From positions 24,445-88,444 of the forward strand of contig VXPE01000070.1 of assembly GCA_009839745.1 (NCBI GenBank): 64,000 nt of DNA, given 5' to 3'. The translations under genes were made by a program, and so were the position numbers. This DNA comes from Candidatus Poribacteria bacterium (GTDB lineage: Bacteria; Poribacteria; WGA-4E; WGA-3G). Within the stretch, counting starts at the first letter, position 1; every line of letters begins with the position of its first letter. The notes under the pieces are model-generated. The model worked only from the letters and a program-made list of their open reading frames with translations. It had not been told where the DNA came from and did no database searches. This document shows, piece by piece, positions 8,225 through 48,301 of the stretch.

Positions 8225-8278
8225 GAAATCTTCCTAAAGTAGTAGGCACGCTCCGCGTGCCGTCCTCATATTTCTCAA
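8221..8278. terminator. nested palindrome between convergent genes (bidirectional terminator candidate)
   Basis: TTGAGAAAT (8221-8229) and ATTTCTCAA (8270-8278) flank the inner hairpin GGCACGC-TCC-GCGTGCC. Confidence 0.45.
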
Positions 8279-8296
8279 ATCAAGACTCCAGTCAAA

Positions 8297-9430
8297 CTAA
8301 CCCCCTTCAATCGTTTCAACGTTAGCACGGGGCAGTAGGGTCTGCTCACCGTCTTCGAGTTCAACACGCAACACGCGCACCTGTGCCTCTGTCTCCAAGT
8401 TCTGAAGTTCTACAGGTAATTCCGTAACACGTCCCAATTTACCGAAATACGGTTCCCGAATGATGCGGACGGAACTGCCGACCTCCAAAATGCCTTCCAC
8501 GCTTCCATCCTTCTCCGCTCGCGTTTCTCCCGCGTCCGATACCAATGGGATCACGATCTCCGGACGAACGACACCGGCACGAATCTGCGTCGCACCGTTG
8601 ATAGAGGTTTTCATACCTTCCCGCGTTTTCAAGAGGTCAAACGTTTGCTCCGCCATTGCGACGCTTCCGAATCCTTCCGTGATAACCAATGTAATCCCAA
8701 TCTCCTCGGAACCTGTAATTGCTACACCGAGTTCGTAACCGAGAAGCTCCCGCAGATCCGCATCATCGATCCCACCGGCAATGATACCTTTTACACCTTG
8801 TTGGATTGCTTTCTGAATTGCCTCAGTCGTGACCAGCGAACCGCCGACCAAAATGTGGTCTCGATGTTCGGGAAGGATCTGTTCCGCAGTCAATCCATCA
8901 CTCGGAGAAGAGACAGCGACAATCAAGTTCCCGATTGTTTCACTGCCAACCCCGAAGATGCCTTGGATATAGGTCCCGTAAGTCTCTACTGTGACACCCT
9001 CATTTGGGGAGATCTCCGTTACTGTGCCATCTGTGTAAGCCTTAACTTCCACAGGAATCGGTGGTTCTCGGAGAATGACTTGTCCCGTGACATCGGACAC
9101 AGCTTCGATTGTACCGTCAATCGGTGAACGTGCCTGCGATTTGAAAAGCCCAAAAAGCCCTTTTGTCGTGGCGATAATCTCATCTTTGGCAATCGTTTCG
9201 CCGACAAGTTTGAGCATGTATTCTGTAATTTCTTCTGCGGGGACACTGAGTAGGTTAGCAACGTTCAGGAGTTGGACGTTACCCGGCAGATCCGCTTTCG
9301 CGACGACATCCTCTGCCTGGACTGCTGCCCCGGCTTCAACGAGAACCTCACCTTGCAGTGGAAGTCGACGTTCTTTCTGAATTGTCATTCCCTCGGTAAC
9401 CTTAAGCCCGGGGGTATATGCATGTGCCAT
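8297..9430 (-). CDS. conserved hypothetical protein (function unknown)
   Basis: Long clean ORF with ATG preceded by AAGG...AAAAA. The N-terminus 'VLVEAGAAVQAEDVVAKADLPGNV' looks like a barrel-sandwich-hybrid (lipoyl-like) fold. The C-terminal 'GSSVRIIREPYFGKLGRVTEL' looks KOW-like. Both domain guesses are weak. Confidence 0.6.
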   Translation of the reverse strand: MAHAYTPGLKVTEGMTIQKERRLPLQGEVLVEAGAAVQAEDVVAKADLPGNVQLLNVANLLSVPAEEITEYMLKLVGETIAKDEIIATTKGLFGLFKSQARSPIDGTIEAVSDVTGQVILREPPIPVEVKAYTDGTVTEISPNEGVTVETYGTYIQGIFGVGSETIGNLIVAVSSPSDGLTAEQILPEHRDHILVGGSLVTTEAIQKAIQQGVKGIIAGGIDDADLRELLGYELGVAITGSEEIGITLVITEGFGSVAMAEQTFDLLKTREGMKTSINGATQIRAGVVRPEIVIPLVSDAGETRAEKDGSVEGILEVGSSVRIIREPYFGKLGRVTELPVELQNLETEAQVRVLRVELEDGEQTLLPRANVETIEGG

Positions 9431-10654: not shown

Positions 10655-11680
10655 TCAACGCCCTAACTTCTGCTGTAGTTTCGGGTTATCTGTAACCTCC
10701 CGATTTACAATATATAACGGCATTTTTCCAGAAGCCACACTGATGATACTCTCACACGCACTCTTGGCGTTGCCTTCAAAGCATTCATCCGTCCAGCAGA
10801 TGCTGTGTGGGGTTACGATAACGTTATCCAGACTTAAGAGCGGATCGTCGTCGTCAATTGGCTCCTGTTCAAAAACATCGAGGCCCGCGCCTTGAATGCG
10901 TCGATTCTGAAGAGCTTCTGTGAGTGCTTTCTGATCAACGATTGGACCGCGTGCGGTGTTAATCAGATAAGCCGTCGGCTTCATCAACCCGATACGTCTC
11001 GCGTTAATGAGTCCGCGCGTTTCCTCGTTTAATGGGCAGCAGACACACACAAAATCAGCCGTTTGCATCAAGGCATCCAGATCGACAGGCTCTACATCCA
11101 CTTCTGCTGCGTCAGCAGGTGTGATGTAAGGGTCGTAGGTGATGTGGCGCATCCCGAAAGGTTTCGCCAGTTTAAACGCCTCTTTCCCGATATTACCCAT
11201 ACCGACAAGTCCCAACGTTCTGCCGACTAACCCCATGCCTCTATAGTTCTGTGTGTTTCTCCAACCCCCGGCACGGATGAGTCTATCCTTTATCAATAAC
11301 TGGTGACCCAACGATAGGACAAAAGTCATGATGGAAGTGGCAACCGGACGACGAACACCATCTGGGGCAATCGTTAGCAATACACCGTTTTCGGTACAAG
11401 CCTCCACGTCCACCTTATCGTATCCGACCCCGAAACGCGCAATGACAGCCAACTTGTCAGCGTCTGTGAACGTTTCTGCCGTGATACCTGCCCCTAATAC
11501 TAAGAGTGCGTCATAATCCTGCACTTGTTCGGCTTGTAATGCGGGTGTATTCTCCGCAATATATTCCCAGTGTAGACCTGCCTTGTCAAAAAGCGGACCG
11601 GCAATGTCATCTAAATCGCAGGTGCCATCGGGTCCTAAGAAGTCGCGCGTGACACCTACGCGAAATACGGATTTGCTCAT
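10655..11680 (-). CDS. D-isomer-specific 2-hydroxyacid dehydrogenase family protein
   Basis: 'GLVGMGNIGKE' (GxGxxG), 'NTARGPIVD' and 'VTPHS'. ATG 11680 lies 2 nt after the stop of the upstream SBP gene, consistent with an operon. Confidence 0.85.
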   Translation of the reverse strand: MSKSVFRVGVTRDFLGPDGTCDLDDIAGPLFDKAGLHWEYIAENTPALQAEQVQDYDALLVLGAGITAETFTDADKLAVIARFGVGYDKVDVEACTENGVLLTIAPDGVRRPVATSIMTFVLSLGHQLLIKDRLIRAGGWRNTQNYRGMGLVGRTLGLVGMGNIGKEAFKLAKPFGMRHITYDPYITPADAAEVDVEPVDLDALMQTADFVCVCCPLNEETRGLINARRIGLMKPTAYLINTARGPIVDQKALTEALQNRRIQGAGLDVFEQEPIDDDDPLLSLDNVIVTPHSICWTDECFEGNAKSACESIISVASGKMPLYIVNREVTDNPKLQQKLGR

Positions 11681-34617: not shown

Positions 34618-36027
34618 ATGGAACAACACAGACCACAAGAGATCAAGGGGCTTTTTCACATGTTGGAACACACCGCAAAGATCGCAGAGGACGCTGCGTT
34701 AACGGGAGCGTTCAGTGGTGGTGAAACGCGGTGCATCTCCCAATTCAATAACATCCTCAAACGTCTCAGGGACATCAACGCGATCCCCGATGGACTTTTT
34801 GAGGAACTGGAAGCAGATGCTTCTTTTAGCCACATTGGCATAGCGTGTCATCAACTTGCCGCCTACCTCAACGAAGAATTGGACACGACTGCGGATTTCC
34901 AAGGCTGGTTCTCCAGTTTCTTCGGCAAACGTTTCATGGAAAATCTAACAGAGGAGTTGTCGGACAAACCCTTCGGCGACCTCATTCGCAAAGCCGTCCC
35001 AGATTTCTTAACCGAGACGACGTTAGAAGACCTTGTCGAAGTCTTCCCCGTTGCTCCCGGTGGAAAACTAACGATCGATGCTGATTTCGGAGCAATTGAC
35101 GTGCAGAGCACAGACACCGATAATGTTTCTGTCCGCGTTCGACGTGCCGCACAGTTGAAAGAAGATCGGCGTGCGGGGGAAATCCTCAAGAATTTTGATG
35201 TCCAGATGACACATGCAGCCGTAGATGTTAAAATTGAGGCAAAATTCAGGGGTCCCGTAAAGCAGTGGAAAAAGGCGAAAAAACGCTTGGATGTCCAATT
35301 TGAAATCGTCGTTCCGCGAAATTACAGGCTTGATTTGAAGACCGCGGACGAGGGAATTTCCGTTGTGGATATAGTCGGAGATGTAAGCACCCACACAGCC
35401 GGGGCAGGACTCCATTTACAAAATATTACCGGACATATCGATGGAACGACTTCCGGTGGAAACATAGATCTCAAGGCGTTTGAGGGCGACGCGACACTTC
35501 GAACGAGTGGCGGGAATATTGCGCTTGACGGCGGCACTGGCGATGTCAAAGCCAAAACGTCGGGTGGCAACATCCAGATGACTGATGTCAGGGGTGCTGT
35601 CAATGGGGAAACCTCCGGCGGCACTGTTACGCTCCGCGGATGTAAAGGCGGCGCAGACGTGAAAACTGCTGGTGGGAGTATAGAGGTAGAAAACGACGGA
35701 CCCGTCCTTGCGAAAACGAGTGGCGGTTCTATCCGCTGTCTGCTCCAAGAGGCAGTTTCCAGTCAGAACTTGCTGCTGGATCTGGAAACAATCGGTGGGA
35801 GTATCAATGTTTCGCTCGTCCCGGATATTGCTGCGACGGTCGAGGCACGGGTGCTTGGCGGTTCAGTCACCACAGAATTCCCGGTAGCTGCAGAGACGAC
35901 AGGGACTGTCAAACCCGATCAGTTGCGGGGAACTATCAACGGTGGCGGTTCACTTTTGAAACTTTTCTCCGTCGGTGGGAACGTCATACTCAGGAAGACA
36001 GAGAGTCACACACCAACAGCAGTATAG
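34618..36027 (+). CDS. DUF4097-type beta-helical protein (possible anti-sigma partner)
   Basis: Repeated 'SGGNI.L', 'TSGGNIQM', 'TSGGTVTL', 'TAGGSIEV' and 'TSGGSIRC' units. It sits immediately downstream of the ECF sigma gene. Confidence 0.7.
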   Translation: MEQHRPQEIKGLFHMLEHTAKIAEDAALTGAFSGGETRCISQFNNILKRLRDINAIPDGLFEELEADASFSHIGIACHQLAAYLNEELDTTADFQGWFSSFFGKRFMENLTEELSDKPFGDLIRKAVPDFLTETTLEDLVEVFPVAPGGKLTIDADFGAIDVQSTDTDNVSVRVRRAAQLKEDRRAGEILKNFDVQMTHAAVDVKIEAKFRGPVKQWKKAKKRLDVQFEIVVPRNYRLDLKTADEGISVVDIVGDVSTHTAGAGLHLQNITGHIDGTTSGGNIDLKAFEGDATLRTSGGNIALDGGTGDVKAKTSGGNIQMTDVRGAVNGETSGGTVTLRGCKGGADVKTAGGSIEVENDGPVLAKTSGGSIRCLLQEAVSSQNLLLDLETIGGSINVSLVPDIAATVEARVLGGSVTTEFPVAAETTGTVKPDQLRGTINGGGSLLKLFSVGGNVILRKTESHTPTAV

Positions 36028-36191: not shown

Positions 36192-37325
36192 TTAATGTTT
36201 AGGTTTCCAGTGCTTATCCTTGGTTAATTCAACTTCAACTAATTCCAATTGCTTCTCCGCAAAGAACTCTTTTAAGTCCTCGGAAAGTTGTTTGATAGGT
36301 TGTTGAAATTCGACGATGTTAATCAATTCTTGTCCTATTGAAGACAGTTGGAGCCCGGGCATGTGGAAATTCCAGTCCGGGGTCAGACTGCTTTGACGAG
36401 ATCTAAGGAAATAGTAGTTATTAGTATATAAAAAGGGAGCAACTGACGTTTCATTTAAAGAAGGTATAAGTGGTAAAGTTTCTACAAAAACCTCGGCGAT
36501 GTTTAAGGTAACTCCACCCATATAATTTATATTCACCCCAGGATTCGCTGGTAGCAACGAATATTCCTGTAGCCTTTCTAAATTTGGTATAGAAATTCCG
36601 TAATTTTCTAAAAACCTATTCGTTCTTCCTACATCAAAACTTGGAAAAATTGACTGATAAATAAAGCCAGAGCCAGCGGGAGCGTCAAATGAAATGCAAC
36701 CAGAACAGAAAGTTCTAAATATTGATGCAGTCTCTGAATCTATTTGACCTAATAGTTTGATGGCACGTATTGAAAAGGTACCAGGTCTTTTAATCTCACC
36801 TGCCAGTATGCGAGCAAAACGTTCTTGCATTTCTTCCGAACTTTTCTGGCAAGCTTCATTTTCAAAGTCATTGAGCCAGTCATCTTGGATGGTCTTTTCC
36901 GAATCCCCCTCGACATTTTCAGTTATTGAACTATCATATTCCGTTTTCTTCAAGTGACCTACGGTCATAGACAAGATTTTTTCAAGGTTAAACTGTTCTC
37001 TCAGTATCTTTTCCGCAAATCTATTACCGGCTCTCTGTGGAAATTCCGGATCAACTTTCATTTGTTGGATAATTTGGTTTGTAACTTCTGTCTGAATTCT
37101 AATACGTCCCTCCGATTCTGATCGTTTTTCGGCAGATCTTCGTTCAAGATATCCAACGGGCACATCCATTAAAGCAGAACACAATCGATCAATAACTTTA
37201 AACATGTTACGACTAATTGGAGCAGGGATAGTTGAATCTGATACAAGATCACGGACAACGTCTATAGCAGAATTAGTTTCATCTGCAATAGTTGGCGGAG
37301 GATTCTTTTCGATTTCGTCAGACAT
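36192..37325 (-). CDS. hypothetical protein, DUF2806-like central motif
   Basis: 'DDWLNDFENEACQKSSEEMQERFARILAGEIKRPGTFSIRAIKLLGQIDSETASIF' matches my memory of DUF2806; this is unverified. ATG 37325 has AAGGA 7 nt upstream. The ORF-track start is a TTG. Confidence 0.5.
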   Translation of the reverse strand: MSDEIEKNPPPTIADETNSAIDVVRDLVSDSTIPAPISRNMFKVIDRLCSALMDVPVGYLERRSAEKRSESEGRIRIQTEVTNQIIQQMKVDPEFPQRAGNRFAEKILREQFNLEKILSMTVGHLKKTEYDSSITENVEGDSEKTIQDDWLNDFENEACQKSSEEMQERFARILAGEIKRPGTFSIRAIKLLGQIDSETASIFRTFCSGCISFDAPAGSGFIYQSIFPSFDVGRTNRFLENYGISIPNLERLQEYSLLPANPGVNINYMGGVTLNIAEVFVETLPLIPSLNETSVAPFLYTNNYYFLRSRQSSLTPDWNFHMPGLQLSSIGQELINIVEFQQPIKQLSEDLKEFFAEKQLELVEVELTKDKHWKPKH

Positions 37326-37392
37326 TATCAAATCCTTTCGGTTATTTTATACTCACTAATTTTCTAATCTGGTTCAGTCGAGAAACTTAATG

Positions 37393-39246
37393 CTACTCCA
37401 CAACAACCGTCTCCTCACCAAGCATATCAATAATCTTCACCGCAACGCGGGCATCAGGACGCGGGAGCGATACGGTGTATTCTCCCTCAACAAAATCTTC
37501 CTTTTTCTTTGGAACGTCGCTCTCGACTATTTTGAAATGCTCCCCCGTGTAATCGGTATCAATCAGGACACAATCAATCTGTGCGCGGAAGTCGTCGATT
37601 TGTTCGTCAAAAATGGTGCGGTCAATATCCATCCGTGCTAAAATGGTTGGACTCATGTACTCTGCGATGGTAATTTTAACACTATCTCCCTTTCTCTCAA
37701 AATTAATCTCTGCTGATGCAGGTTCAAAAGTAGTGACTCCTTCACTACCGATGTCGCGCACAAAGATTTTGTTTACTGCGCGCCGTCTGTTTTCCTCCTT
37801 GAGTTCCGCCTGAATCCCGCTATTGATACCGTAACAAAATACAGTGATGTTACGCGACTCATCTGGCCGCTTCTCAAGTTCGTCTTTAATTGTCTGAATG
37901 TCTAATGGCGTGAGCGGTTTCGTTAGGTCAATGATTTTGACGAGTGTTCCGTCCAAGGTGCCATTAAAAAACGCCTCTTGCCTATCAGTTTGCACGCCAT
38001 ATTTTTTCATGACAATATCCCTTCGCTCCAAATCGGTACTTGCATCGTAGTTATTGACGCGATAGTGTGCCATGCCGCGCTGCATATTTGGTAGCGTCTG
38101 TAGTCTTTTTATTGTTGTCTGGATCGCCCCTTTGTTAATATCTGCAGCAATCCAACGTCTGCCGAGTTTTTCTGCTACGGCAGCAGTGGTGCCACTTCCG
38201 ACAAAACAGTCAAGGACGATAGAATTTTTATTGCTTGATGCTTCGATGATACGCACAAGGAGTGCTTCGGGCTTTTGAGTTGGGTAATGAAGATATTCGT
38301 TCGGATTAACACCTAACCCAGGAATATCATCCCATATATTATCAGCAACTGTTTTCTCAAGAACTTTATCACCAACAGTTTCGCGGTGATACTTGATCCT
38401 TATTTTGCCTGCCGTTACCGACACCTTGCCATCCTTAATCAAAAGTTTCCCACCGCGTGTGACAAAAATGCGTCCTTCTTTATAAAGTTTAATAATGCTC
38501 TCGTCAGAGTATGTCCCTGGGTCGGAAGTTGCGAAGAAATCTTTATCATCTTTTTTGAATTTTCGCTTGGCTTCTTCCAACGAGAGGGTAATAACTTTTT
38601 CGATTTTATTCCAAATTGCGTTGTCCTTGTCTTTTGCATAGAGATAAATATAATCCGAACTAAATGGCATAAACTCGGCATGTGTTTTCATTCCTCGGAC
38701 AATTTGTCGACGCCATGTCACCAAGTTAAGAAAATTGCTTTTCCCAAAAATCTCGTCCATTGCAAGGCGGAGATAACTATTCATTCGCCAGTCACAATGC
38801 ACGTAGATTGACCCATTATCAGTCAACAATTCCCGCATCAAAATCAACCGTTCATACATGAATTGGAGATAGTTGTCATTTGCCCAGATATCGGTGTATT
38901 GCGTCTGTTCAATCACAGAATGTCCCTCAGCCTTCAAATCTTCTTTCTTACCACGTAGTTTCACTTTCCGCACGTAGTCTGCACCACTTGCAAACGGAGG
39001 ATCAATATAAATGAGGTCAATCTTGCCACGGAAACCTTGCACAAGCAGCGTGGAGAGAATCTCTTTATTGTCGCCGTGAAAAAGGAGGTTGGGACCGTCT
39101 TTAAATTTGTCATAAGTCGGTTCTTGCTCTGGGTTCTCCACGTCATAAGTATCCACCAATTGTGCAGGATAATTGCTTATTGTGTCAATTGGACGTTTGC
39201 CGACCCAGTGAAGCATAGGTCTGCCTTTAACTGGTTTTATTTTCAT
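37393..39246 (-). CDS. site-specific DNA methyltransferase, beta-class N6-adenine type (type III Mod-like)
   Basis: N-terminal 'LHWVGK', motif IV 'LIYIDPPFASG' preceding motif I 'LDCFVGSGTTAAVA', with a long variable region between them. SD AGGAAG lies upstream. Confidence 0.85.
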   Translation of the reverse strand: MKIKPVKGRPMLHWVGKRPIDTISNYPAQLVDTYDVENPEQEPTYDKFKDGPNLLFHGDNKEILSTLLVQGFRGKIDLIYIDPPFASGADYVRKVKLRGKKEDLKAEGHSVIEQTQYTDIWANDNYLQFMYERLILMRELLTDNGSIYVHCDWRMNSYLRLAMDEIFGKSNFLNLVTWRRQIVRGMKTHAEFMPFSSDYIYLYAKDKDNAIWNKIEKVITLSLEEAKRKFKKDDKDFFATSDPGTYSDESIIKLYKEGRIFVTRGGKLLIKDGKVSVTAGKIRIKYHRETVGDKVLEKTVADNIWDDIPGLGVNPNEYLHYPTQKPEALLVRIIEASSNKNSIVLDCFVGSGTTAAVAEKLGRRWIAADINKGAIQTTIKRLQTLPNMQRGMAHYRVNNYDASTDLERRDIVMKKYGVQTDRQEAFFNGTLDGTLVKIIDLTKPLTPLDIQTIKDELEKRPDESRNITVFCYGINSGIQAELKEENRRRAVNKIFVRDIGSEGVTTFEPASAEINFERKGDSVKITIAEYMSPTILARMDIDRTIFDEQIDDFRAQIDCVLIDTDYTGEHFKIVESDVPKKKEDFVEGEYTVSLPRPDARVAVKIIDMLGEETVVVE

Positions 39247-39258
39247 TGTGTGTTCTTC

Positions 39259-39963
39259 CTATGTTGTAGGCTGGAGTGCCATTTTTTCAACTGTTCGGCC
39301 AAGTATTCTTAAGTTTAGAGATTTTTGTTGCACAAAACTATCCCAAGATGTATAGCATCGAATAGATGCTTTTTTAGGTTTTGGAGCGTCTTCCGTGTTT
39401 TTCAGTCTCCGGATTAAAAGTTCCATTGTTTTTTGTATTTTCTCCGCAGTAGGATATTTGGAGAAGGGAGGAATTGTATTTGCATCAATAAATCCTTGAT
39501 GGATATTGTCTGAGCTTCGTTTTAAATTACTCTTCCAAAATCTCCTTTCACGATTAGTTGCAGTCAATCGCCCACATGTAAAATCGTATCCCCAACGTGC
39601 AAAATCTTCTTTTAACTTTGCAAATAAATTATCTGAGATAATAAAAAAATCAAGATCCGACTTGTTATCAATAAAAGGGGCACCGAGTTTACAAGGGTCA
39701 AAAGATTTGCCTAACTGCGCACTTCCCACCAAACCAATTTCTTTTGCTTTAACCTCTAAACGATCTGCAACCCAACAACGAATAGAATCATATATGGCCG
39801 GACAAATAGAAAAAACAGATGGTATTCCTTCAGATAACCAGAGTCTTGCAATCGTCTCTTGGGCTTCTTTACCACCTTCAAGTGCTACTTGAAGCAACAA
39901 TGCTGGATCGGGATAGTGGACAAACAGCTTTCGGAGTGATGCTTCAATTTCAAAAGGTTTCAT
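39259..39963 (-). CDS. hypothetical protein with pol-beta-fold nucleotidyltransferase-like motif
   Basis: 'LVGSAQLGKSF..(15 aa)..SDLDFFIISD' resembles G-S...D-x-D of minimal NTases. ATG 39963 has GGAGA 6 nt upstream. It overlaps the upstream ORF by 14 nt and ends 12 nt before the mod gene. Confidence 0.5.
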   Translation of the reverse strand: MKPFEIEASLRKLFVHYPDPALLLQVALEGGKEAQETIARLWLSEGIPSVFSICPAIYDSIRCWVADRLEVKAKEIGLVGSAQLGKSFDPCKLGAPFIDNKSDLDFFIISDNLFAKLKEDFARWGYDFTCGRLTATNRERRFWKSNLKRSSDNIHQGFIDANTIPPFSKYPTAEKIQKTMELLIRRLKNTEDAPKPKKASIRCYTSWDSFVQQKSLNLRILGRTVEKMALQPTT

Positions 39964-40675
39964 TTTGAATCTCCCCATAAGATTTTAGACTTTCACTCAT
40001 AGTATTGGCTAGTGTTATTAAATGACGACCTCTACGCTGAATTTTCTCTAAATGTTCAGACCCACATTCTCCAGGTTCTGGATATTTTAATCGAGCAACG
40101 AGCTTAGCAGCCTCAAAAACATTAATCGATTTTGGATTAATTCTCAGTCTTGTGCAAGCCTGCCTAAAATTGTTCATTCCCCAACCATAATAAGCAATCC
40201 ATAAATAAAGAATTGGCAATCGATCTTTCGGAATATATCGCGTCAAACGGACAGCAAAAAAAATCTCAATAAATTTTCGCCTCCACGTTTTTTCATAACG
40301 ACCTGTGACTGCTCTGACAAACTGCATAGCGATTGTTGACCCCCCCTGCCTTACTCCACAGAAAACAGTTTTCCAAAGTGCTCTACAAAGAGCAAACAGA
40401 TCAACACCAAGATGTTCATAAAAGCGATGATCTTCGCCGACAATGAGCAGCTTACACATTTGTGGTGTTGGGATCGGGAAATCAGTTTGAGCGATTTCTA
40501 ACTCCAACTTTTCGACTGAGTCACATAGTTGTTCCCATTGGATTTTAATCGGTACTTGCATCAGAATTTCCCATATATATGGTGAATGTACTACCATCGG
40601 AAATTTGGGCCACCATCTAAACCAAGATTGTGGTATAATAACAATCCCTCCAATGGCCAAACGCAGAAGATTCAC
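39950..40675 (-). CDS. GT51-like (peptidoglycan glycosyltransferase / MtgA-like) domain protein
   Basis: Ordered GT51 blocks 'GEDHRFYEHLGVD', 'QGGSTIAMQ', 'RRKFIEIFFAVRL', 'KDRLPILYLWIAYYGWG' and 'AAKLVARLKYPEP', with a hydrophobic N-terminus. The start is uncertain: GTG 40675, ATG 40597 or ATG 40561. Confidence 0.7.
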   Translation of the reverse strand: MNLLRLAIGGIVIIPQSWFRWWPKFPMVVHSPYIWEILMQVPIKIQWEQLCDSVEKLELEIAQTDFPIPTPQMCKLLIVGEDHRFYEHLGVDLFALCRALWKTVFCGVRQGGSTIAMQFVRAVTGRYEKTWRRKFIEIFFAVRLTRYIPKDRLPILYLWIAYYGWGMNNFRQACTRLRINPKSINVFEAAKLVARLKYPEPGECGSEHLEKIQRRGRHLITLANTMSESLKSYGEIQNETF

Positions 40676-40683
40676 TTCCGATT

Positions 40684-40810
40684 ATCCTACAAGTGTCCAA
40701 CCAGAAACGCCCTCACTCGGCATTAGGCTATTTAGCCCCTGTCGGATGTGAGTCACAACACTTGTCTTAACTGGACGGATTTTTTGGTCTAAATAAGGGT
40801 TGGCACTCCA
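40684..40810 (+). pseudogene. IS3-family transposase 3' remnant with element end
   Basis: The frame reads '..NQKRPHSALGYLAPVGCESQHLS*' (40699-40770), the conserved C-terminal integrase-core tail of IS3 transposases. No upstream part of the gene is present. Confidence 0.6.
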
Positions 40811-40813
40811 GAC

Positions 40814-40966
40814 TCATTCTTGTTTCTGTTCAAAGTCTGCAATACTTTGATAGCTGTTCTGAAGTAGAGCGATAATATCAACCCCCATGTTTTTGGCAGC
40901 ATTCCAGTCAGATTTGGCTTTTTCAAGTTCTCCTATATTTAACCACGCCATACCCCGAAAACTATA
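40814..40966 (-). pseudogene. 3' fragment of the IS-disrupted TIR-TPR gene
   Basis: The minus frame reads 'YSFRGMAWLNIGELEKAKSDWNAAKNMGVDIIALLQNSYQSIADFEQKQE*'. It joins in-frame to the 5' part once the IS and one TATA copy are removed. Confidence 0.6.
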
Positions 40967-42003
40967 TAACCCAAGTTGCTAGTAGTGCATCAAGATTGAG
41001 TTTATGATAAGTAGGTCGGGTAGAGCGTCAGCGAAACCCGACATCTTCAGGAGACCCCACTCTTAAACTCAAAGTTGAAAGACTACTAGTTAGTAATGAG
41101 TTGTAAATCCATGGGACATCCTTTATAGTGTTTTTATCCTAAAAAACCAAAAGGAGCACCCCATGGACCTAACTATTGTAGCAGTTTATACGATTTGTGA
41201 CGACCTTTTAATCTCACTCGGACATCAAGACGACCCTCGCGCAAAAATGTCGGATGCTGAAGTCATGACGACCGCCCTCATCGCCGCGAGATACTTTGGG
41301 GGTAATCAACAAACGGCTTGTGCCGCCTTGAAAACACTCGGATATATCCCGAATATGTTGGGACATTCCCGCTTCAACCGGCGACTTCATCAGGTATCAG
41401 AACACTTTCAAACGCTTTTTCAAGTCCTCGCTGAGGGGTTCAAAGCCGAGAACTCAGAGAATATCTACAGTATTGATACGTTTCCTGTAGCAGTGTGCGA
41501 CAATATCCGTATTTCTCGTTCACACCTGTATCAAGGGCCCGATTGGCATGGCAGGATCGCAAGCAAACGCCGCTACTTCTATGGGTTAAAAGCGCATCTG
41601 ATGGTCACCGAGACCGGTAAAATCGTTGAAGCGTTTTTCACCCCAGGACGCTGTTCGGATGTGCTTGGCTTACGGTGTTATGCCTTTGATTTACCCCAAG
41701 GGTCTGTTGTATACGCAGATAAAGCGTATTGTAACTATGGTATTGAAGATGCTTTAGCAGCCTCCGGGATTTCACTAAAACCTATTCGTAAGAAGAATGC
41801 TAAACGTCAGTATCCGCCTCATGAAGTTTATCTGCAACACTTCCACAGAAAGCGCGTGGAGGTGACCAACAGTCTCATTGAGCAACTCTTCCCGAAGTCG
41901 ATCCATGCGGTGACGGCTGTCGGTTTTGAGTTGAAAGTCTTCTTGTTTATCATCGCTACAAGCATTAGACAACTCTTTGGAGAAGAATAGCAACTTGGGT
42001 TAG
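40967..42003 (+). mobile_element. IS982-family insertion sequence (about 1.04 kb)
   Basis: Terminal inverted repeats AACCCAAGTTGCTA (40968-40981) and TAGCAACTTGGGTT (41988-42001). Single transposase ORF. TATA occurs on both flanks (40963-40966 and 42004-42007). Boundaries are good to about 2 bp. Confidence 0.75.
41163..41990 (+). CDS. IS982-family DDE transposase
   Basis: 'VYTICDDLL', 'SIDTFPVAVCDN', 'YFYGLKAHLMVTETGKIVEAFFTPGRCSDV', 'VYADKAYCNYGIEDAL' and 'RKRVEVTNSLIEQLF'. SD AAGGAG lies upstream. Confidence 0.8.
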   Translation: MDLTIVAVYTICDDLLISLGHQDDPRAKMSDAEVMTTALIAARYFGGNQQTACAALKTLGYIPNMLGHSRFNRRLHQVSEHFQTLFQVLAEGFKAENSENIYSIDTFPVAVCDNIRISRSHLYQGPDWHGRIASKRRYFYGLKAHLMVTETGKIVEAFFTPGRCSDVLGLRCYAFDLPQGSVVYADKAYCNYGIEDALAASGISLKPIRKKNAKRQYPPHEVYLQHFHRKRVEVTNSLIEQLFPKSIHAVTAVGFELKVFLFIIATSIRQLFGEE

Positions 42004-43189
42004 TATAGTCTGCGATTGCTTTGTCATACTCACCAAGCGCAGCATAAGCCTCGCCGCGAATAGTATATACCTCGTCCTCCATAGTATAGACTTCGTTACG
42101 AACTGAATACAATTTTATTGCTTTGTTGCAGTTTTTGATGGCACGTTTGTAATTGCCTTTCCTGGAATAAGTCGCCCCACGGTTCACGTAGGCAACGGGA
42201 TAATTAGGTTTAAGCCTTATCGCCTTATTCAAATCTACGACCGCTTTGTCACATTCACCAATCATATTGTAAACTCCACCACGAGTAGTGTAAGCCTCAG
42301 CATAATCTGGCATCAGTTTTATTGCCTTGCTACATTCTTTGAGGGCGCGTCTATAATCACCCTTACTGCCATAAACTTCCCCAAGATTCAGGTAGGCAAT
42401 GGCAGAATTTGGATATAGTTCAATCGCTTTGTTATATTCTTTGATGGCGCGCTCATTTTCGTTTTTTCCGTCATAAGCAGCACCTCGGTTGTTATAGGCA
42501 AGTGAAAAATTTGGTTCGAGATCAATTGCTTTTGTAAAGTCTTTTATTGCTTTGTCGTGTTCACCTTGCATGTGGAAGGCAGCCCCTCGATTGTTATACG
42601 CACCAACATGGCGTGGATTGAGTTCAAGCGCCTGTGAGTAGAATTCTATCGCTTTGTTGATTTGATCCAGCATCAGTATGAAGTTACCCTGTTGGAACAC
42701 CCACTCAGTAAGTTGATCGCTCTGAGTATTCTCAGATGATAGGCCTTCCCGAGTCTTTATTTTTTCAATAACTTTCCATATACCTTCTACCACATTTTGC
42801 CAACCTTCGCTCTTATCATCCCATTTGCTAAGAGACTTACCTTTGTGAGGAAGCACTTCAAAACGACTAATTTGATGACGTAGCCAATCGCAATGTTCAA
42901 GGAGAATCGGGATAACCTTTATTTTTTGGTTCAATGCCTCTACTAATTCCCTGTTGCAGTTTTTAGAGGCGAGACTGGCAGCGGAGACGAGGTAGATAAG
43001 CAAATCCGAATCAGCAACTTTTTCGAGAATATTTTCCTGAAGTGCTTCGTCGCCTGGGGTAAGTCGACAATCATCCCAAGTTACTAACTCGTTTTGCTGC
43101 TCCATTACAGCGAGACGTTCTCGTAATTCGTCTTTTTGTTTTGCATCCTTGTGTGAATAGGTAATGAATCCTTTTAGTGGTTTGTTCAC
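42004..43189 (-). pseudogene. TIR-domain / TPR-repeat protein, 5' part (interrupted by IS982 after codon ~395)
   Basis: TIR 'GFITYSHKDAKQKDEL..SKNCNRELVEAL', followed by at least 7 TPR units ('AYNNRGAAF..', 'AYLNLGEVY..'). The GTG start overlaps the upstream stop (GTGA). The ORF-track tail 41828-42003 is antisense IS sequence. Confidence 0.8.
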
Positions 43190-43527
43190 GATTGTTTCTC
43201 CATAACACCGTGCTTTGAATGGGCGGAATCTTTTAATGTGGAAAGAATGTCCAGTACTTTATCCAATTGCGGTGGGGGCTCGGTATTAAGGAGATAGGTG
43301 AGCGTCTGCGGACTGAGATTTGTCCATGCAACCAGTTCTTCAACTCCGCCTTGCGCTTCTGCAATATCTTTCAGGCAGAGCAATAATAATTCAATATTAC
43401 CATCCTTATCAAAGTCTTGGAGGGCAGTTTCCAAGTAACCTTTTGCAAATTCCGGTTGTACCAAGTCTTTAAGGAGGTAGTCTTTAAACCTTATTGTGCA
43501 ATGTCGAAGCTTAATCTCTGTGTTCAT
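43186..43527 (-). CDS. HigA-like addiction-module antidote protein (HTH)
   Basis: 'FAKGYLETALQDFDKDGNIELLLLCLKDIAEAQGGVEELV..NLSPQTLTYLL'. ATG 43527 has AAGGAG 8 nt upstream. Confidence 0.75.
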   Translation of the reverse strand: MNTEIKLRHCTIRFKDYLLKDLVQPEFAKGYLETALQDFDKDGNIELLLLCLKDIAEAQGGVEELVAWTNLSPQTLTYLLNTEPPPQLDKVLDILSTLKDSAHSKHGVMEKQS

Positions 43528-43532
43528 TGTGA

Positions 43533-43868
43533 TTACTCCTTCATGTGTCCTAAGAAGTCGTTCCAATAGTTTTGTGCTCTGTCAATATCCCGCTGTTGTG
43601 TGCCTTTCGTACCCCCACAAAGCAAGATAATGTCATTTTGAAAAAGTCCGAAATAGACGCGATATCCAGGACCATAACGGATTCTCAATTCATATAAACC
43701 TGAACTTAATCGCTTGAAGTCGCCAAAGTTCCCTATTCGCAAACGTGTAATTCTATTGGATATAGCTATCCGTGCATTTTGATCTCTAATCCGCGTGTAC
43801 CATTGCTGATATGAATCGCGGCCACTTGGTGTTGTGTAGGTGAGTATTTCTCTGGGACGAATTTGCAT
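43533..43868 (-). CDS. HigB/RelE-family addiction-module killer protein
   Basis: 'RLRIGNFGDFKRLSSGLYELRIRYGPGYRVYFGLFQNDIILLCGGTKGTQQRDIDRA'. Toxin-first gene order. Confidence 0.78.
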   Translation of the reverse strand: MQIRPREILTYTTPSGRDSYQQWYTRIRDQNARIAISNRITRLRIGNFGDFKRLSSGLYELRIRYGPGYRVYFGLFQNDIILLCGGTKGTQQRDIDRAQNYWNDFLGHMKE

Positions 43869-43954
43869 GTTTATAAGTGTAATGAAATTTTTAGCAATTT
43901 TTAACCTTTTTCCATCCACACAGCGTGAGAACCACCACTTATACCGAACTCACA

Positions 43955-46612
43955 CTAAATTATTTCACTATCGTTCTGCAAAGATTCGTTCCCATAAATC
44001 CATTCTCGGATAGTCTGCATTTCGTCTAAATTCTCTTGAAGGAAAGCATCCCTCGTATAAATGACCTTATATTCAAAATGAGCCTCTGGCTGCAAATTTT
44101 TCAAACGTTCCACTGCCTTCTCTTTTGCTACGACGATAGGGTCGCCGCGTTCACTTTCAGACTTAATCTCAACGATGTAGAATTCCCCTGTGTTCTTGAC
44201 GATAACAAAATCCGGAAAATAACGGTGATAATTGTTATCAGTGCCTTTGTATTCAAAGTGGAAATCGGTCTTCTTTGTATTCGTCAAACTTCCTGTAAAC
44301 AGGAAGACTTTGACATCTGCAACCGACTGATTCAGCGTTGCTAAAATCGTTTTAAAGAAATTCTGTTCAGGTCCGCTATCAAAGTCGTAGGGCATATAAT
44401 GAAAACTTACACCGTGGCTATCGTCTAAGTCCTCTTTACTGAGTAGCAGGTCAGCTTTGCTTTTGCGCAGACGCACCTTGTGAACGTAGCAGTCCTCAGT
44501 ATCATCTTTCTCAAAAAGTAGATTGCCATCGTCATCGTGGATACGAATCAGCGCGAGGTGTTCTGCAATCTGTTCCTCAATCACTTGGTAATTTTGCTGC
44601 TGGTCTTCCACTTGTTTGCACAGCGAATCGAAGTGTTTATACGGAACTTGACCCTCTGGATAGAGACTTTTGAGGCTTTTTAACGTCTCCATAACAGAGA
44701 GATGATAGTTTGTCGCAAGCCGTCTCGCCAGTGTGTAGCAGTCCGTTGTCCGATTCGTTATCTCAACTTCGTCCTGCGTTCCTAACGCTGTTAGCGGAGA
44801 GGCTCCCCGCTGCGTAAAGTCGGGGGTCAGAATGCTGCGAAAAGCAGCCAGAGTCTCCCCTACATCTGTAGGTTTGTGCAGCTGAATCTCTTTAGGTGCA
44901 TTTTCCAATGGGACAACCCGGCGCACCAACTGCATAATTTTTAATTTCGGCAAATCAGGCTTACGAATGCGGAGTGCAAATTCTTCCGTTTCCGCGTCTT
45001 GTTTACGCAGTTCACCAAGTGTCGTACCAAAGTTTGCCTGTAATTCTTTATCTAAAATCGTACTGTTTTTCGTATCCAAAAAGATTTTGGCAGTGTGCGT
45101 GTTGCCTTTCACTTGACGGAGACATCGGGTTGAGGCTTGCAAAATAAAATTACTGCTCGTTGTCTGCTCCTTAATCAGCGCGCAAGCGAATAGACTGGGG
45201 CAGTTCCAGCCCTCTGTCCCTTTGCCAATAAGTAGAATAATACGTTTCTGACTGTCAGAATTATTCAGCCGCTTGAATTCATCAATCTCCTGCGGACTTG
45301 ATTTTTGGGTATTGACGAGTATCTGAGTGGTACTCTCTCTCCTTTGGGTAAGTGCGTTTTGAATGTACTGATGGGAGGTATCCAAATGTTCTTGCGTTTT
45401 GAAGTAAAAGGCGATTTTCGCTTTCGCCCCACCGGGCAATGATATATCACCGTAGTGGTCAAAAAAATCATCTATAACGCTACGGATTACGTCTGCATCA
45501 GGCATCATTCCAATAGGGTACTGAACAATGCCGTTGTGAAGACTTTTGAGGATGTTGTCCTTAATTCCTTCACCGAGACTATACCACGCCACAACTTCTC
45601 TGAGCATCTGCCGTTTGGCGTAAGGCGTGCCAGTGGTATTGATAACAGCAACGAGAGGCGTTTTCTCATGTATGTAGTTAACCGTTTCCCGCACCCGTTT
45701 AAGTTCCGCGTCTATTTTGTTTCCGTAAGTGTGATGTGCCTCGTCTGAGAAGACCCCTAAACTTGGCAGACTCGTGATTTTTTGTAGTCGGAGGTTTGCC
45801 TCTAATTCTGCCTGCTCCTTCTTCTCTTCAAACTCTAATTCTGTCTGATTACTTCGCTTTTTGAGATTTGCCCGAAGCGCGATTTTCTCAGTGTTCGTGA
45901 CAATAACGTTGTAAGTACTACCGGCTTGAACCTGAATTTCTTTTGCTCCGGTCTGTGGATAGGTGATTTTGAGATTGGCGAGAAAATCACGATGTAGACT
46001 GGCAGGCAAAACCTGATCAAAAGGGATGTCACTGATTTCACGGAGGCTTTCAATAATCGTTGTACCGGGCGCAAAGACGAGGGCATTTTTCATGAAATTG
46101 CCCTCTGGATAGCGAAGTGCCATCGCGAATTCAGTTGCAATAATGGCACCAATAAGAACCGTCTTGCCTGTGCCCATCGCAAGCGCGAAGATATAACTTG
46201 GATAAGGAAGTGTTACAGCTTCATAAACAGGGTCAATTCCTTTCAGTTTAACAAATTCTGGGGTGTGTTCCACTAAATTAATAACTGCATCAACATTTGT
46301 AATGTATATCAGATCGTTTGGAGTGAGTGGGATTCCGAAGGCTTCGCAGAAATCGCGTATATCGCCGGTGTCGTAATAGTGTTTATAGATGTCTACGATA
46401 TGTGGGGTTTTCAACACTAATCGCAGGAACCAATAGAGTTCTAATGATTGGAATTGCGGTTCGCGAAGGTATTTGAGGTGAACACGATCATCTGCTTCTC
46501 CTTCAAACTGATAGCGTAGTATTTCTCCGATGAGTGGGTAATCTTGGCAGGGATATCCATCTTTACGCCAGTTCAATGTATCATCACGTAGTTTTTCAAA
46601 AAGGTGTTGCAT
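43955..46612 (-). CDS. type III restriction Res-like SF2 helicase with C-terminal PD-(D/E)xK nuclease
   Basis: 'LREPQ', Walker A 'AMGTGKT', 'SDEAHH', 'TGTP', 'GTEGWNCP' and 'QASTRCLRQ'. C-terminal 'YFPDFVIV..YIVEIKSE'. Confidence 0.82.
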   Translation of the reverse strand: MQHLFEKLRDDTLNWRKDGYPCQDYPLIGEILRYQFEGEADDRVHLKYLREPQFQSLELYWFLRLVLKTPHIVDIYKHYYDTGDIRDFCEAFGIPLTPNDLIYITNVDAVINLVEHTPEFVKLKGIDPVYEAVTLPYPSYIFALAMGTGKTVLIGAIIATEFAMALRYPEGNFMKNALVFAPGTTIIESLREISDIPFDQVLPASLHRDFLANLKITYPQTGAKEIQVQAGSTYNVIVTNTEKIALRANLKKRSNQTELEFEEKKEQAELEANLRLQKITSLPSLGVFSDEAHHTYGNKIDAELKRVRETVNYIHEKTPLVAVINTTGTPYAKRQMLREVVAWYSLGEGIKDNILKSLHNGIVQYPIGMMPDADVIRSVIDDFFDHYGDISLPGGAKAKIAFYFKTQEHLDTSHQYIQNALTQRRESTTQILVNTQKSSPQEIDEFKRLNNSDSQKRIILLIGKGTEGWNCPSLFACALIKEQTTSSNFILQASTRCLRQVKGNTHTAKIFLDTKNSTILDKELQANFGTTLGELRKQDAETEEFALRIRKPDLPKLKIMQLVRRVVPLENAPKEIQLHKPTDVGETLAAFRSILTPDFTQRGASPLTALGTQDEVEITNRTTDCYTLARRLATNYHLSVMETLKSLKSLYPEGQVPYKHFDSLCKQVEDQQQNYQVIEEQIAEHLALIRIHDDDGNLLFEKDDTEDCYVHKVRLRKSKADLLLSKEDLDDSHGVSFHYMPYDFDSGPEQNFFKTILATLNQSVADVKVFLFTGSLTNTKKTDFHFEYKGTDNNYHRYFPDFVIVKNTGEFYIVEIKSESERGDPIVVAKEKAVERLKNLQPEAHFEYKVIYTRDAFLQENLDEMQTIREWIYGNESLQNDSEII

Positions 46613-46670: not shown

Positions 46671-47615
46671 TCATACATCATTATACTTTTCGTCTATTTC
46701 CTGGGCAATTACTTTCAAGGTTTCTACTTGCCGTTGTGTAAAGTCTGCGAAGATGTAGGTATCGTCCGCATGGATGTGAGTTTCATCCGGGGCGCAAAAG
46801 CATGCCTTGATGTGTTGCAAGGCATAATCAAGATTTTTGTATATGTCCTCTATATTGTCATCCGGTTCATCTCGTTCTCTCAATCCAGCCTTAAAGGTCT
46901 CAACGGATTTTAATATCTGATCAACATAATAACCAACAAGTTGAGCATGGGCCGAATCTGCGGACAAAATAGCCTCAAATATTTTTGTAAATGGATATGT
47001 TGTATGCTGGAAGGCATCAGCTAATTTTTTATCTGCAAATTTTTTTCTATGTTCCACTTCTTCTTCCTTTAAAGTTTCAATTACGTTATTCAAAACATCT
47101 TCAAAAACTCCTTTTTGCGTTGCAATTAAATCAGGAACACTTATATCCACATGCTTGGAATTAAGTGCTTTACCTCCTGATTTTGCTGGATAGAGTGTCA
47201 TTAGATGAAACTCTTGAGCACTAAGAGTTACGCGGGTAATGAAGTTAAATGCTTTTTTGTTACCTCTATTTGTAGGATGTCCAGCAGCGTCAATGCGAAT
47301 ATGCCGGATTTTTTCTAATGCAGTATCCTTGGTGTACGGAATTTTAAGAGCTTCATGTAGATTTTTTACGGCTTCTTGCTGCACATAGAGAGCCTGCAAA
47401 GCACCATAGATACGCAAATAATTTCTGCCTTTGTCAGAACTATCAGTGTCTAATTTTAGAAAACTTTCTAACGCTTCTTCTGTGTCCCCAATAGTATCCA
47501 TACAACTGCAAAGCATGTACCACAAGGTGGAATCTCGAATTAAGAGATTTTGCTTGCGGGAACTATTGATTAAATCTCGAATTTTACTAATTCGTTCGTT
47601 AAGAGGATATTTCAT
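46671..47615 (-). CDS. hypothetical protein (possible HEPN-like Rx5H motif)
   Basis: Clean 314-aa ORF with SD AGGAAG. It ends 58 nt upstream of res. The only motif I noticed is 'IRHIRIDAAGHPTNR'. Confidence 0.55.
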   Translation of the reverse strand: MKYPLNERISKIRDLINSSRKQNLLIRDSTLWYMLCSCMDTIGDTEEALESFLKLDTDSSDKGRNYLRIYGALQALYVQQEAVKNLHEALKIPYTKDTALEKIRHIRIDAAGHPTNRGNKKAFNFITRVTLSAQEFHLMTLYPAKSGGKALNSKHVDISVPDLIATQKGVFEDVLNNVIETLKEEEVEHRKKFADKKLADAFQHTTYPFTKIFEAILSADSAHAQLVGYYVDQILKSVETFKAGLRERDEPDDNIEDIYKNLDYALQHIKACFCAPDETHIHADDTYIFADFTQRQVETLKVIAQEIDEKYNDV

Positions 47616-47710: not shown

Positions 47711-48301
47711 TTAATCACGGAACGTGACGCGTTCGTAGATCTCCTGCAAGGGCAATTCGCACTCGATAGAAGGAAATAGTAGCATCTCATCAGGTCCTTC
47801 AAAATCGGTAAAGATCCACTGCCTTTCTTGGCGACGGTAGTGTTCAACACGAACCTGGTCTTGCGCCACAAGGACATATTCCTGCAACGAGGTGAGTTGG
47901 CGATAGTGCGCGAATTTTTCACCGCGATCATACACTTCGGTGGAGGGTGAAAGCACTTCTATAACGACAATCGGGTTCAAGAGCATGTCAAAAACATCGT
48001 CTTCAAAACGAGGTTCTGCACAGACAACCCCCACATCAGGATAAAAGTAGGATTTTGTTGTCGGAATGCTGATACGCATTTCGTTGGCGAAAACAGCACA
48101 CTCAGTACCCATCAAGCTGGTATGCAACCTTGCAGAAATGTTCATTGTTATCAGATTATGCGCGAAACTTGCTCCAGACATAGGAATAATCTCTCCATTC
48201 ATGTATTCGCTTCTGACGGTTTCCGCATCAGGTATCGCCTTGCGTTCTAAAATAATGTATTCTTCTGGTGTGAGGTATGTTTGGGCTTCTCGCGTCGCCA
48301 T
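47711..48301 (-). CDS. Uma2 (DUF820) family putative endonuclease
   Basis: 'LTPEEYIILE', 'EYMNGEIIPMSGASFAHN', 'YPDVGVVC', 'NPIVVIEVLSPST' and 'GEKFAHYRQLTSLQEYVLV'. Confidence 0.82.
   Translation of the reverse strand: MATREAQTYLTPEEYIILERKAIPDAETVRSEYMNGEIIPMSGASFAHNLITMNISARLHTSLMGTECAVFANEMRISIPTTKSYFYPDVGVVCAEPRFEDDVFDMLLNPIVVIEVLSPSTEVYDRGEKFAHYRQLTSLQEYVLVAQDQVRVEHYRRQERQWIFTDFEGPDEMLLFPSIECELPLQEIYERVTFRD

Follow-up and report, generated by a model that had tools for sequence, protein, structure and literature searches.

What does a peptidoglycan glycosyltransferase do among defence-type genes, and why should it be joined to a partner that belongs to no known family? We examined this question for two overlapping genes, here called A and B, in a 64,000-nucleotide stretch of Candidatus Poribacteria DNA (contig VXPE01000070.1, positions 24,445 to 88,444), referred to below as the window. 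An earlier note, made from the letters alone, had put forward the pair as a candidate new module, with the hypothesis that a nucleotidyltransferase (NTase) controls an envelope effector, or the reverse. We found that A is a complete, bona fide GT51 glycosyltransferase domain, that B can be placed in no demonstrable known family and has a predicted fold that matches nothing solved, and that A and B form one conserved, obligately paired unit. Judged from sequence, the A family appears to be a discrete clade of GT51 domains without a membrane anchor but with the catalytic residues intact, and the cassette appears to have spread horizontally between distant bacteria, being rare, patchy and mobile.

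Both open reading frames (ORFs) were found on the minus strand, co-directional, where they had been reported. Gene A (39950-40561, start ATG 40561; PF00912) encodes a GT51 protein of 203 aa, and gene B (39259-39963, ATG 39963-39961) encodes a partner of 234 aa. The TGA of A ends at 39950 and the two genes overlap by exactly 14 nt, ATGAAACCTTTTGA (39950-39963, minus strand), while the Shine-Dalgarno sequence of B, GGGGAG, lies at 39971-39976 on the same strand, 7 nt upstream of its ATG, so that the reported overlap and ribosome-binding site both stood. This arrangement implies probable translational coupling of A and B.

The assignment of A to GT51 was confirmed at several levels. A matched the Pfam family PF00912 (Transgly) with 94.4 bits (E 7e-27, cutoff 27 bits) over profile positions 24-172 of 178, and all five GT51 signature blocks were present in order, with the spacing of canonical enzymes. 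The residues E81/D82, Q110-G-x-S-T-I-x-M-Q118 and R133-K134-x-x-E137 (numbering of the 241-aa ORF originally called) were invariant in 36 sequences and also in a 33-sequence set, and both catalytic glutamates were invariant across the family. When an AlphaFold2 model of A (pLDDT 82.4) was searched with Foldseek, the best 22 matches were all GT51 with a probability of 1.00 and TM-scores of about 0.6-0.72; they included 2oqo (the glycosyltransferase domain of Aquifex aeolicus penicillin-binding protein (PBP) 1a), 3vmt (Staphylococcus aureus MtgA with a lipid II analogue), 2olv and 3vma, with PBP2 and PBP1b among them. A profile of the A family searched against the PDB likewise retrieved GT51 chains, with the Aquifex PBP1a glycosyltransferase domain at E 7e-20.

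A hydrophobic N-terminus had also been ascribed to A, and this part of the earlier description did not hold. Homologues of A, close and distant, begin at Met39 (MQVPIK..., ATG 40561), and the upstream extensions were not alignable. The stretch from the GTG at 40675 (40562-40675, minus strand), included when the ORF was called mechanically, is a spurious extension, a non-coding leader within a repeated element of ~230 bp. Its maximum on the Kyte-Doolittle scale was 1.41 in a 19-residue window, below the threshold of 1.6 for a transmembrane segment, and with the same windows 0/33 A-family and 0/127 B-family sequences reached 1.6. A hydrophobic membrane anchor was rejected on these grounds, since the extension is not conserved, falls below the threshold and lies in repeated non-coding DNA. 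The N-terminal helix of A is charged. A is thus predicted to have no signal peptide or membrane anchor, and because no anchor was seen in the A family we infer that A is probably cytoplasmic. The membrane anchor implied by the earlier note is wrong, and the cytoplasmic look of A changes the mechanistic picture.

The repeated element brackets the A-B pair in a related Poribacteria locus, L010, as direct repeats that are 85-90% identical (9131-9358 and 10680-10926). In the window only the upstream copy is present (40594-40806), and the spurious extension of A overlaps this DNA. Of the loci compared, only the window and L010 showed the element; it may represent a promoter or leader that was duplicated, or else the footprint of a cassette insertion beside mod. 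The repeats in L010 had also suggested an integron-like cassette, a reading that was set aside. In one clade a pentapeptide-repeat gene overlaps the start of A by 4 nt (L062 7105-8004 and L063 3143-4066), which suggests a three-gene variant. The transmembrane-like N-terminal extensions on three A homologues (P0133, P0138 and P0168) may be alternative-frame translation of the 3' end of this pentapeptide-repeat gene.

We also asked whether A could be an ordinary mtgA or PBP orthologue. Its score against the mtgA equivalog TIGR02070 was 49.8 bits with a cutoff of 182.65, and its best NCBIfam match, PBP_1c, reached 91 bits with a cutoff of 494. In a metagenome scan the scores of the A-family hidden Markov model (HMM) were bimodal, with short B-linked proteins at >=160 bits and ordinary PBPs of 700-860 aa at <=78. 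The NCBIfam cutoffs, the bimodal scores and the distribution of the family led us to reject an ordinary orthologue. Furthermore, the pair was not found with cell-wall gene clusters and occurred in defence-type contexts, in agreement with the earlier remark that it sits apart from the cell-wall loci where housekeeping GT51 genes are normally found.

Gene B proved harder to place. No family was found in Pfam (E<=0.1), NCBIfam or PADLOC, and the protein gave a weak match to one unannotated PHROG. Its AlphaFold2 model was very confident (pLDDT 93.9, predicted template-modelling score 0.88), and a Foldseek search with it revealed no match of any fold, NTase included, in the PDB or BFVD. Profile searches of the PDB with 39- and 127-sequence B profiles yielded nothing relevant. 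The family itself is large, with 1124 representatives at the 50% cluster level (E<=1e-3) and 274 at E<=1e-30, and the best 150 profile matches were all of the type found in pairs. Conservation within it is strong: the WLSEG-P block (42-48) was invariant in 39 sequences, G80-S81 and R202 were invariant in these 39 and near-invariant in 127, and G85 and S102-D103-x-D105 were invariant in both sets. Several cysteines are also conserved.

The motif by which B had been called NTase-like, LVGSAQLG...SDLDFFII, was present, and the signature GSxRxG...SDLDL resembles that of NTases of the MNT and PAP types. Sub-threshold matches to PF01909 (NTP_transf_2) were obtained for 13 of the 39 members, the best with E 0.014. 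The predicted secondary structure runs helix, strand, G-S, short helix, strand with D-x-D, helices, strand 'FID', helix and strand, an order that is compatible with a pol-beta core with insertions, and D160 in 'GFID' is a possible third carboxylate, although it is not invariant. The motif and its invariant G-S and S-D-x-D residues stand, and the structural searches returned no NTase; we put the odds that B is a derived NTase-like enzyme at about even.

The linkage of the two genes was almost without exception. A lay directly upstream of B on the same strand in 43/43 species-level genomes having upstream sequence; the identical 14-nt overlap was seen in 25 of these 43 loci, and an overlap of some length in about 38. 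B lay downstream of each A protein that was looked up and in 28 of the 30 informative metagenome loci, and the two exceptions, one with a 36-aa B stub (L078) and one with a truncated A (L104), were both decayed. Moreover, at least six mutually divergent A-B fusion proteins were found (P0070, P0200, P0240, P0259, P0295 and P0271), of 421-634 aa, with the Transgly domain N-terminal and B C-terminal; P0271 carries ~180 extra C-terminal residues without a Pfam match. The earlier note had named three findings that would speak against its proposal, namely an ordinary mtgA orthologue, a partner motif lacking structural support and a pair never adjacent elsewhere. The last is refuted by these counts, and none of the three was fully borne out, the structural support for the NTase motif being the weak point.

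B was carried by 46 of 185,579 species-level genomes, and these came from at least 12 phyla. The hosts include Poribacteria, Gamma- and Betaproteobacteria, Campylobacterota, Acidobacteriota, Desulfobacterota and Latescibacterota, and further Gemmatimonadota, Nitrospirota, Chlorobiota, Binatia, Ignavibacteria and Bacillota, with protein identities of 40-60% between phyla. One copy was found on a plasmid, pM830MA of Aliarcobacter cryaerophilus, where PGAP had annotated A as 'biosynthetic peptidoglycan transglycosylase' and B as hypothetical, and where HNH/AAA, DUF4365, PLD, TIR and DUF4917 genes make up the surrounding island. In IMG/VR 2 of 2.9 million contigs carried the cassette, both as prophage cargo: in a lambda-like prophage between tail fibres/methylase and integrase, and in a P2-like prophage after gpD. 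The cassette was absent from GenBank phages, and on these two results we rejected the idea that it is a phage gene. No DNA-level match was found in 5,426 complete Escherichia coli genomes. Cultured carriers are Pseudomonas sp. Gutcm_11s, Alcanivorax sp. 1008, Halieaceae GM1-29 and the A. cryaerophilus strain with pM830MA.

The surroundings of the pair were then compared across loci. In type I restriction-modification (R-M) systems it lies between hsdM/hsdS and hsdR (L006, L030 and L038), adjoined by PIN, AIPR, RhuM, trypsin-like and KAP genes. In type III systems its place is next to res or mod, or between the two (the window, L010, L003-5 and L070), adjoined by AbiJ, AbiTii, M78 peptidase and integrase genes. 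It directly follows an Mrr-MmeI unit in L066. In another recurrent arrangement AAA_21/AAA_15-DUF4435 (or DUF4276) genes are followed by the pair and then by UvrD and/or a PD-(D/E)xK nuclease (L055 5973-12872, L035 7088-11494 and L068 1850-10043); in L068 a UvrD gene lies on one side of the pair and separate ORFs for UvrD_C and PDDEXK_1 lie on the other. In L062 the pair is neighboured by type I CRISPR-Cas and by ThiF/ubiquitin-like genes. About 12 distinct loci were annotated through Pfam, PHROGs or a plasmid record, and in 10 of them defence genes (R-M, Abi, toxin-antitoxin, CRISPR or other) occurred within 8 kb. Among the 25 best of about 280 neighbour families, the recurrent ones were N6_N4_Mtase (3), Mrr_cat (3), ResIII (2), AAA_21 (2), integrase (2) and transposase (2), recurrences that look well above chance when judged against typical gene frequencies. 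Overall, the pair shows a strong preference for defence operons, though it occurs in other settings as well.

Constant pairing, fusions, the absence of an export signal and the placing as cargo in immunity loci fit a module made of a sensor or regulator and an effector. The reading that we favour, tentatively and at somewhat less than an even chance, is that A-B is a self-contained, mobile two-gene conflict module of the anti-phage or abortive type, carried as cargo between res and mod. The wider statement, estimated separately, that the pair is a conflict or defence module is moderately probable, and a defence or suicide role is credible from the features of the two genes and their settings. 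In the proposed mechanism, A would be active on the cytoplasmic side, where it would use as precursor a sugar linked to undecaprenyl diphosphate (lipid II-type) or an analogous sugar diphosphate. Because the donor-diphosphate and catalytic motifs are kept, its most likely substrate would be a lipid II-type sugar-diphosphate-lipid in the inner leaflet or a soluble analogue. Once unleashed, A would mis-polymerise or sequester the cell-wall precursor; undecaprenyl carrier and precursor would be trapped, wall synthesis would stall, and the infected cell would stop growing or lyse. B would be the sensor or regulator that gates A, possibly by nucleotidyl transfer at its invariant G-S...D-x-D site. 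This specific lipid II mechanism is doubtful. Slightly more doubtful still is the fullest version, in which A-B would be the first immune module with a peptidoglycan glycosyltransferase effector on the cytoplasmic side, cued by phage, switched by a new-fold partner with an NTase-like site, and lodging preferentially in R-M and helicase-nuclease operons as a second line for the case that immunity at the DNA level fails.

Several observations weigh against this reading. Canonical GT51 enzymes act on flipped lipid II at the membrane's outer face, and the access of an anchorless, cytoplasmic GT51 to lipid II is a putative step. The NTase function assigned to B found no support in the Foldseek, PDB profile or hhalign comparisons: hhalign of B with a single MNT and with an MntA profile (18 sequences of low diversity, drawn from the best 120 matches) aligned only 13 columns around SDxDL, with a probability of 2-7%. 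Furthermore, about 21 residues separate G-S from D-x-D in B, and this spacer is 9-13 residues in canonical NTases. Neither protein has a match in PADLOC-DB. Defence, toxin-antitoxin or mobile genes were found within 10 kb in at least 17/46 species loci only, a figure from a low-sensitivity seed search, and no family dominated the three nearest genes on each side among the best 25 families just mentioned. In one widespread lineage (L057-61, 24 contigs) the pair (~7399-8702) has a stable housekeeping and envelope setting with no defence genes nearby, in the order DAO oxidase, pair, lnt, prfB, lysS/aspS, lolC/E, lolD, aminotransferase IV and bamA, and in L007 it lies among PhyH genes. Finally, either gene can be the decayed one: in L053, L054 and L078 (393-1107) B is truncated or a stub beside an intact A that keeps all its motifs, A is frameshifted and B intact in L028 and L033 (all of these being metagenome-assembled or single-amplified genomes in which errors are possible), and A is truncated in L104 (277-663). 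Because of this, and barring assembly errors, neither gene would seem to be individually indispensable or lethal.

The decayed loci bear most directly on the first of the other explanations, a toxin-antitoxin or addiction module that would stabilise the islands and plasmids carrying it. A would poison the wall precursor and B would inactivate A by nucleotidylylation as in type VII MntA-HepT, where MntA is a minimal nucleotidyltransferase antitoxin that AMPylates its toxin. The genes are indeed small, overlapping, co-directional, horizontally scattered and found beside other toxin-antitoxin pairs, and the signature of B is MNT-like; HEPN-MNT fusions are known (PMC12839542), so that the A-B fusions are no contradiction. 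However, were B an antidote that the cell needs, an intact A next to a truncated B or a 36-aa stub should be lethal, homology between B and MntA is unsupported, and the enzyme-first gene order is opposite to that of mntA-hepT. We consider this explanation unlikely. Since A persists intact without B, a relation of activator to effector is likelier than one of strict toxin to antidote, and B would more likely be an activator than a classical antitoxin.

An accessory pair outside any conflict, which would use diphosphate-activated sugars in the cytoplasm to build or alter a glycan and be mobile in the way of niche-adaptation genes, is just as unlikely. It would account for two proteins that both look like active enzymes, for the loci among lnt, lolCDE, bamA or PhyH/oxidoreductase genes, and for the finding that the neighbours in the 46 species loci are mostly not recognisable defence genes. 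On the other hand, no conserved third gene, such as a flippase, a polyprenyl-phosphate transferase or a sugar-nucleotide enzyme, appeared among the neighbour families listed, the prevalence is extremely low, and metabolism does not readily account for a cassette that turns up repeatedly within R-M and other defence operons, in a plasmid defence island and in the cargo slots of prophages.

The R-M setting raised the question of whether the pair might be an auxiliary or guard of the flanking R-M or helicase-nuclease system, firing when the restriction complex is inhibited, or acting on sugar-modified phage DNA. The cassette does lie within type I, type III and MmeI R-M operons and AAA/DUF4435-UvrD operons of unrelated phyla, and PrrC, inside a type I R-M locus, is a precedent. 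In the window the stop of B is followed after 12 nt by the start of mod, which encodes a type III-like N6/N4 DNA methyltransferase (Mod; 37393-39246, minus strand; PF01555 with 159.7 bits, PADLOC MTase_III/MTase_II), and no terminator-like site was found on the minus strand between A and the DUF2806 gene that follows mod, in a promoter and terminator scan whose counts were not above shuffled expectation. Many loci, however, lack a neighbouring R-M or helicase system, the systems that do host the pair are unrelated in type, which is more in keeping with a common slot for cargo than with a dedicated partnership, and A keeps the GT51 diphosphate-sugar motifs and nothing related to DNA; we give this explanation a small chance. 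A secreted effector-immunity pair, in which A would enter the periplasm of a competitor and B would protect the producer, draws on the naturally periplasmic chemistry of GT51 and on the abundance of small toxin/immunity pairs in variable islands, but it is very improbable given that neither protein has a signal peptide or transmembrane segment, that no trafficking domain was seen in the alignments and no secretion-system family was prominent among the neighbour families listed, that B carries an invariant site of catalytic appearance as well as several conserved cysteines, and that natural A-B fusions exist.

Returning to the window, the pair is part of an A+T-richer island, as the earlier note had observed: G+C content is 39-45% over 36-48 kb and ~48-53% in the flanks. 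Downstream of mod lies a gene for a DUF2806 protein (36192-37331, minus strand; PF10987 with 77.8 bits, TIGR03899-like, with a sub-threshold match to PF14337, Abi_alpha). A DUF2806 gene also follows mod in L010 (12918-13847), so that the synteny holds in both Poribacteria genomes, and this protein may be further cargo of the abortive-infection type in the mod operon. Upstream, a gene for a ResIII helicase-nuclease (43955-46612, minus strand; PF04851, weak NF046055) encodes the presumed Res-like partner of Mod. The A-B pair and other cargo are placed between Res and Mod, and the gene order Res...A-B-Mod is common to the window and L010. This cargo includes an overlapping HigB(Gp49)-like/HigA-like pair (43186-43919, minus strand; PF05973 and PF21716, both sub-threshold), of which the HigA-like gene is syntenic in L010, and a TIR-TPR gene with a ThsB-like TIR domain (42004-43189, minus strand; TIR_2, ThsB_TIR and TPR families, PADLOC ThsB with 82.6 bits).

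The TIR gene, the toxin-antitoxin-like pair and the R-M genes reported around A and B were thus all recovered, while the reported scar of an insertion sequence (IS) turned out to be an intact element. It spans ~1037 bp (40967-42003, plus strand), has perfect terminal inverted repeats of 15 bp and a probable TATA target duplication, and encodes a DDE transposase (41163-41990, plus strand; DDE_Tnp_1_3/DDE_Tnp_1). The IS sits in the last TPR repeat, at the 3' end of the TIR-TPR gene, and has cut off a small ORF upstream of A that is the displaced TPR tail (40814-40962, minus strand). By our reasoning from the sequence, excision of the IS with one TATA copy would rejoin the TIR-TPR frame with the tail ORF. 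L010 lacks the IS, and its homology to the window stops exactly at 40966. Between the Res gene and an ABC-transporter gene at ~48.4 kb, which marks the far edge of the island, are genes for a 314-aa protein with no Pfam family (46671-47615, minus strand) and for a putative restriction endonuclease of the Uma2 family (47711-48301, minus strand). Just outside the low-G+C island, a 469-aa ORF (34618-36027, plus strand) has many repeats of the TSGGNI/TSGGSI type in its C-terminal half and no Pfam match at E<=0.01. Over 2.9 kb the window shares 99.9% identity with a contig from Candidatus Poribacteria bacterium SB0668_bin_37, of a sponge symbiont lineage, and a wealth of defence genes has been reported for sponge symbionts (PMC5649159, PMC5099237).

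We found no family for A or B at E<=0.1 in PADLOC-DB v2.0.0, which includes CBASS CD-NTase/SMODS and PDC candidates. Likewise, no description linking GT51, PF00912 or lipid II to defence was found in the searchable full text, a body that leaves paywalled papers, supplementary lists and newer DefenseFinder models outside. Within the literature that can be searched, the pairing of these domains is undescribed, as the earlier note had supposed.

GT51 enzymes are the textbook extracytoplasmic cell-wall synthases and are antibiotic targets. A mobile, anchorless GT51 family with intact catalytic residues would therefore be a new use of the fold, and if A were an abortive-infection effector it would represent a new effector type, one based on the enzymatic misuse of a cell-wall precursor, and would offer a handle on shutting down lipid II flux from inside cells. 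The B family (~1,100 clusters at 50% identity) has a confident predicted fold that is unmatched, so that both its structure and its chemistry would be novel whichever reading holds. The embedding in R-M systems offers a testable model of layered or guard immunity, and because cultured isolates carry the cassette, experiments are feasible.

How, then, does the pair compare with systems already known? With MtgA and the GT51 domains of class A PBPs (2OQO, 3VMT), A shares the fold, the five motifs and their spacing, both catalytic glutamates, RKxxE and GGSTI. It differs in having no N-terminal membrane anchor or signal peptide, in being only ~23-27% identical to solved GT51s and far under the NCBIfam equivalog cutoffs, and in reading STIAMQ instead of STITQQ. 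Moreover, A is an obligate companion of B or is fused to it, is rare, has a distribution scattered by horizontal transfer, and shows no synteny to cell-wall clusters. Zeta/PezT toxins act in the cytoplasm as UDP-GlcNAc kinases and thereby poison peptidoglycan synthesis, and single-gene lysis proteins of phages block MurA, MraY or MurJ. To these the likeness is a functional analogy only, corruption of the lipid II pathway from inside the cell, since their folds and chemistry are unrelated to A-B; no described precedent for mis-polymerisation or sequestration by a GT51 domain was found in the searchable literature.

Type VII MntA-HepT is likewise a two-gene overlapping cassette in which one partner has a signature of the G-S...S-D-x-D type, and fusions of the partners occur there (PMC12839542) as they do with A and B. 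However, B has 234 aa and a 21-residue spacer whereas MntA has about 130 aa, neither profile nor fold comparison gave a significant similarity of B to MntA, a GT51 enzyme takes the place of the HEPN RNase as the partner, and A persists without B in decayed loci. The Abi and toxin genes embedded in R-M loci (PrrC in EcoprrI, and AbiJ, AbiTii, PIN, AIPR and RhuM) occupy the same slot as A-B, beside hsdM/S-hsdR or mod-res, but their domain content is entirely different, and sensing of the R-M state by the pair is only putative. Systems of antiphage signalling by cyclic oligonucleotides (CBASS) and other systems of an NTase plus an effector also place a putative NTase-like gene beside a putative killing enzyme. 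Unlike CBASS, the A-B pair gives no PADLOC CD-NTase or SMODS match and A has no recognisable ligand-sensor domain, and the A-B fusions suggest that the two proteins may work by direct contact rather than through a diffusible signal.

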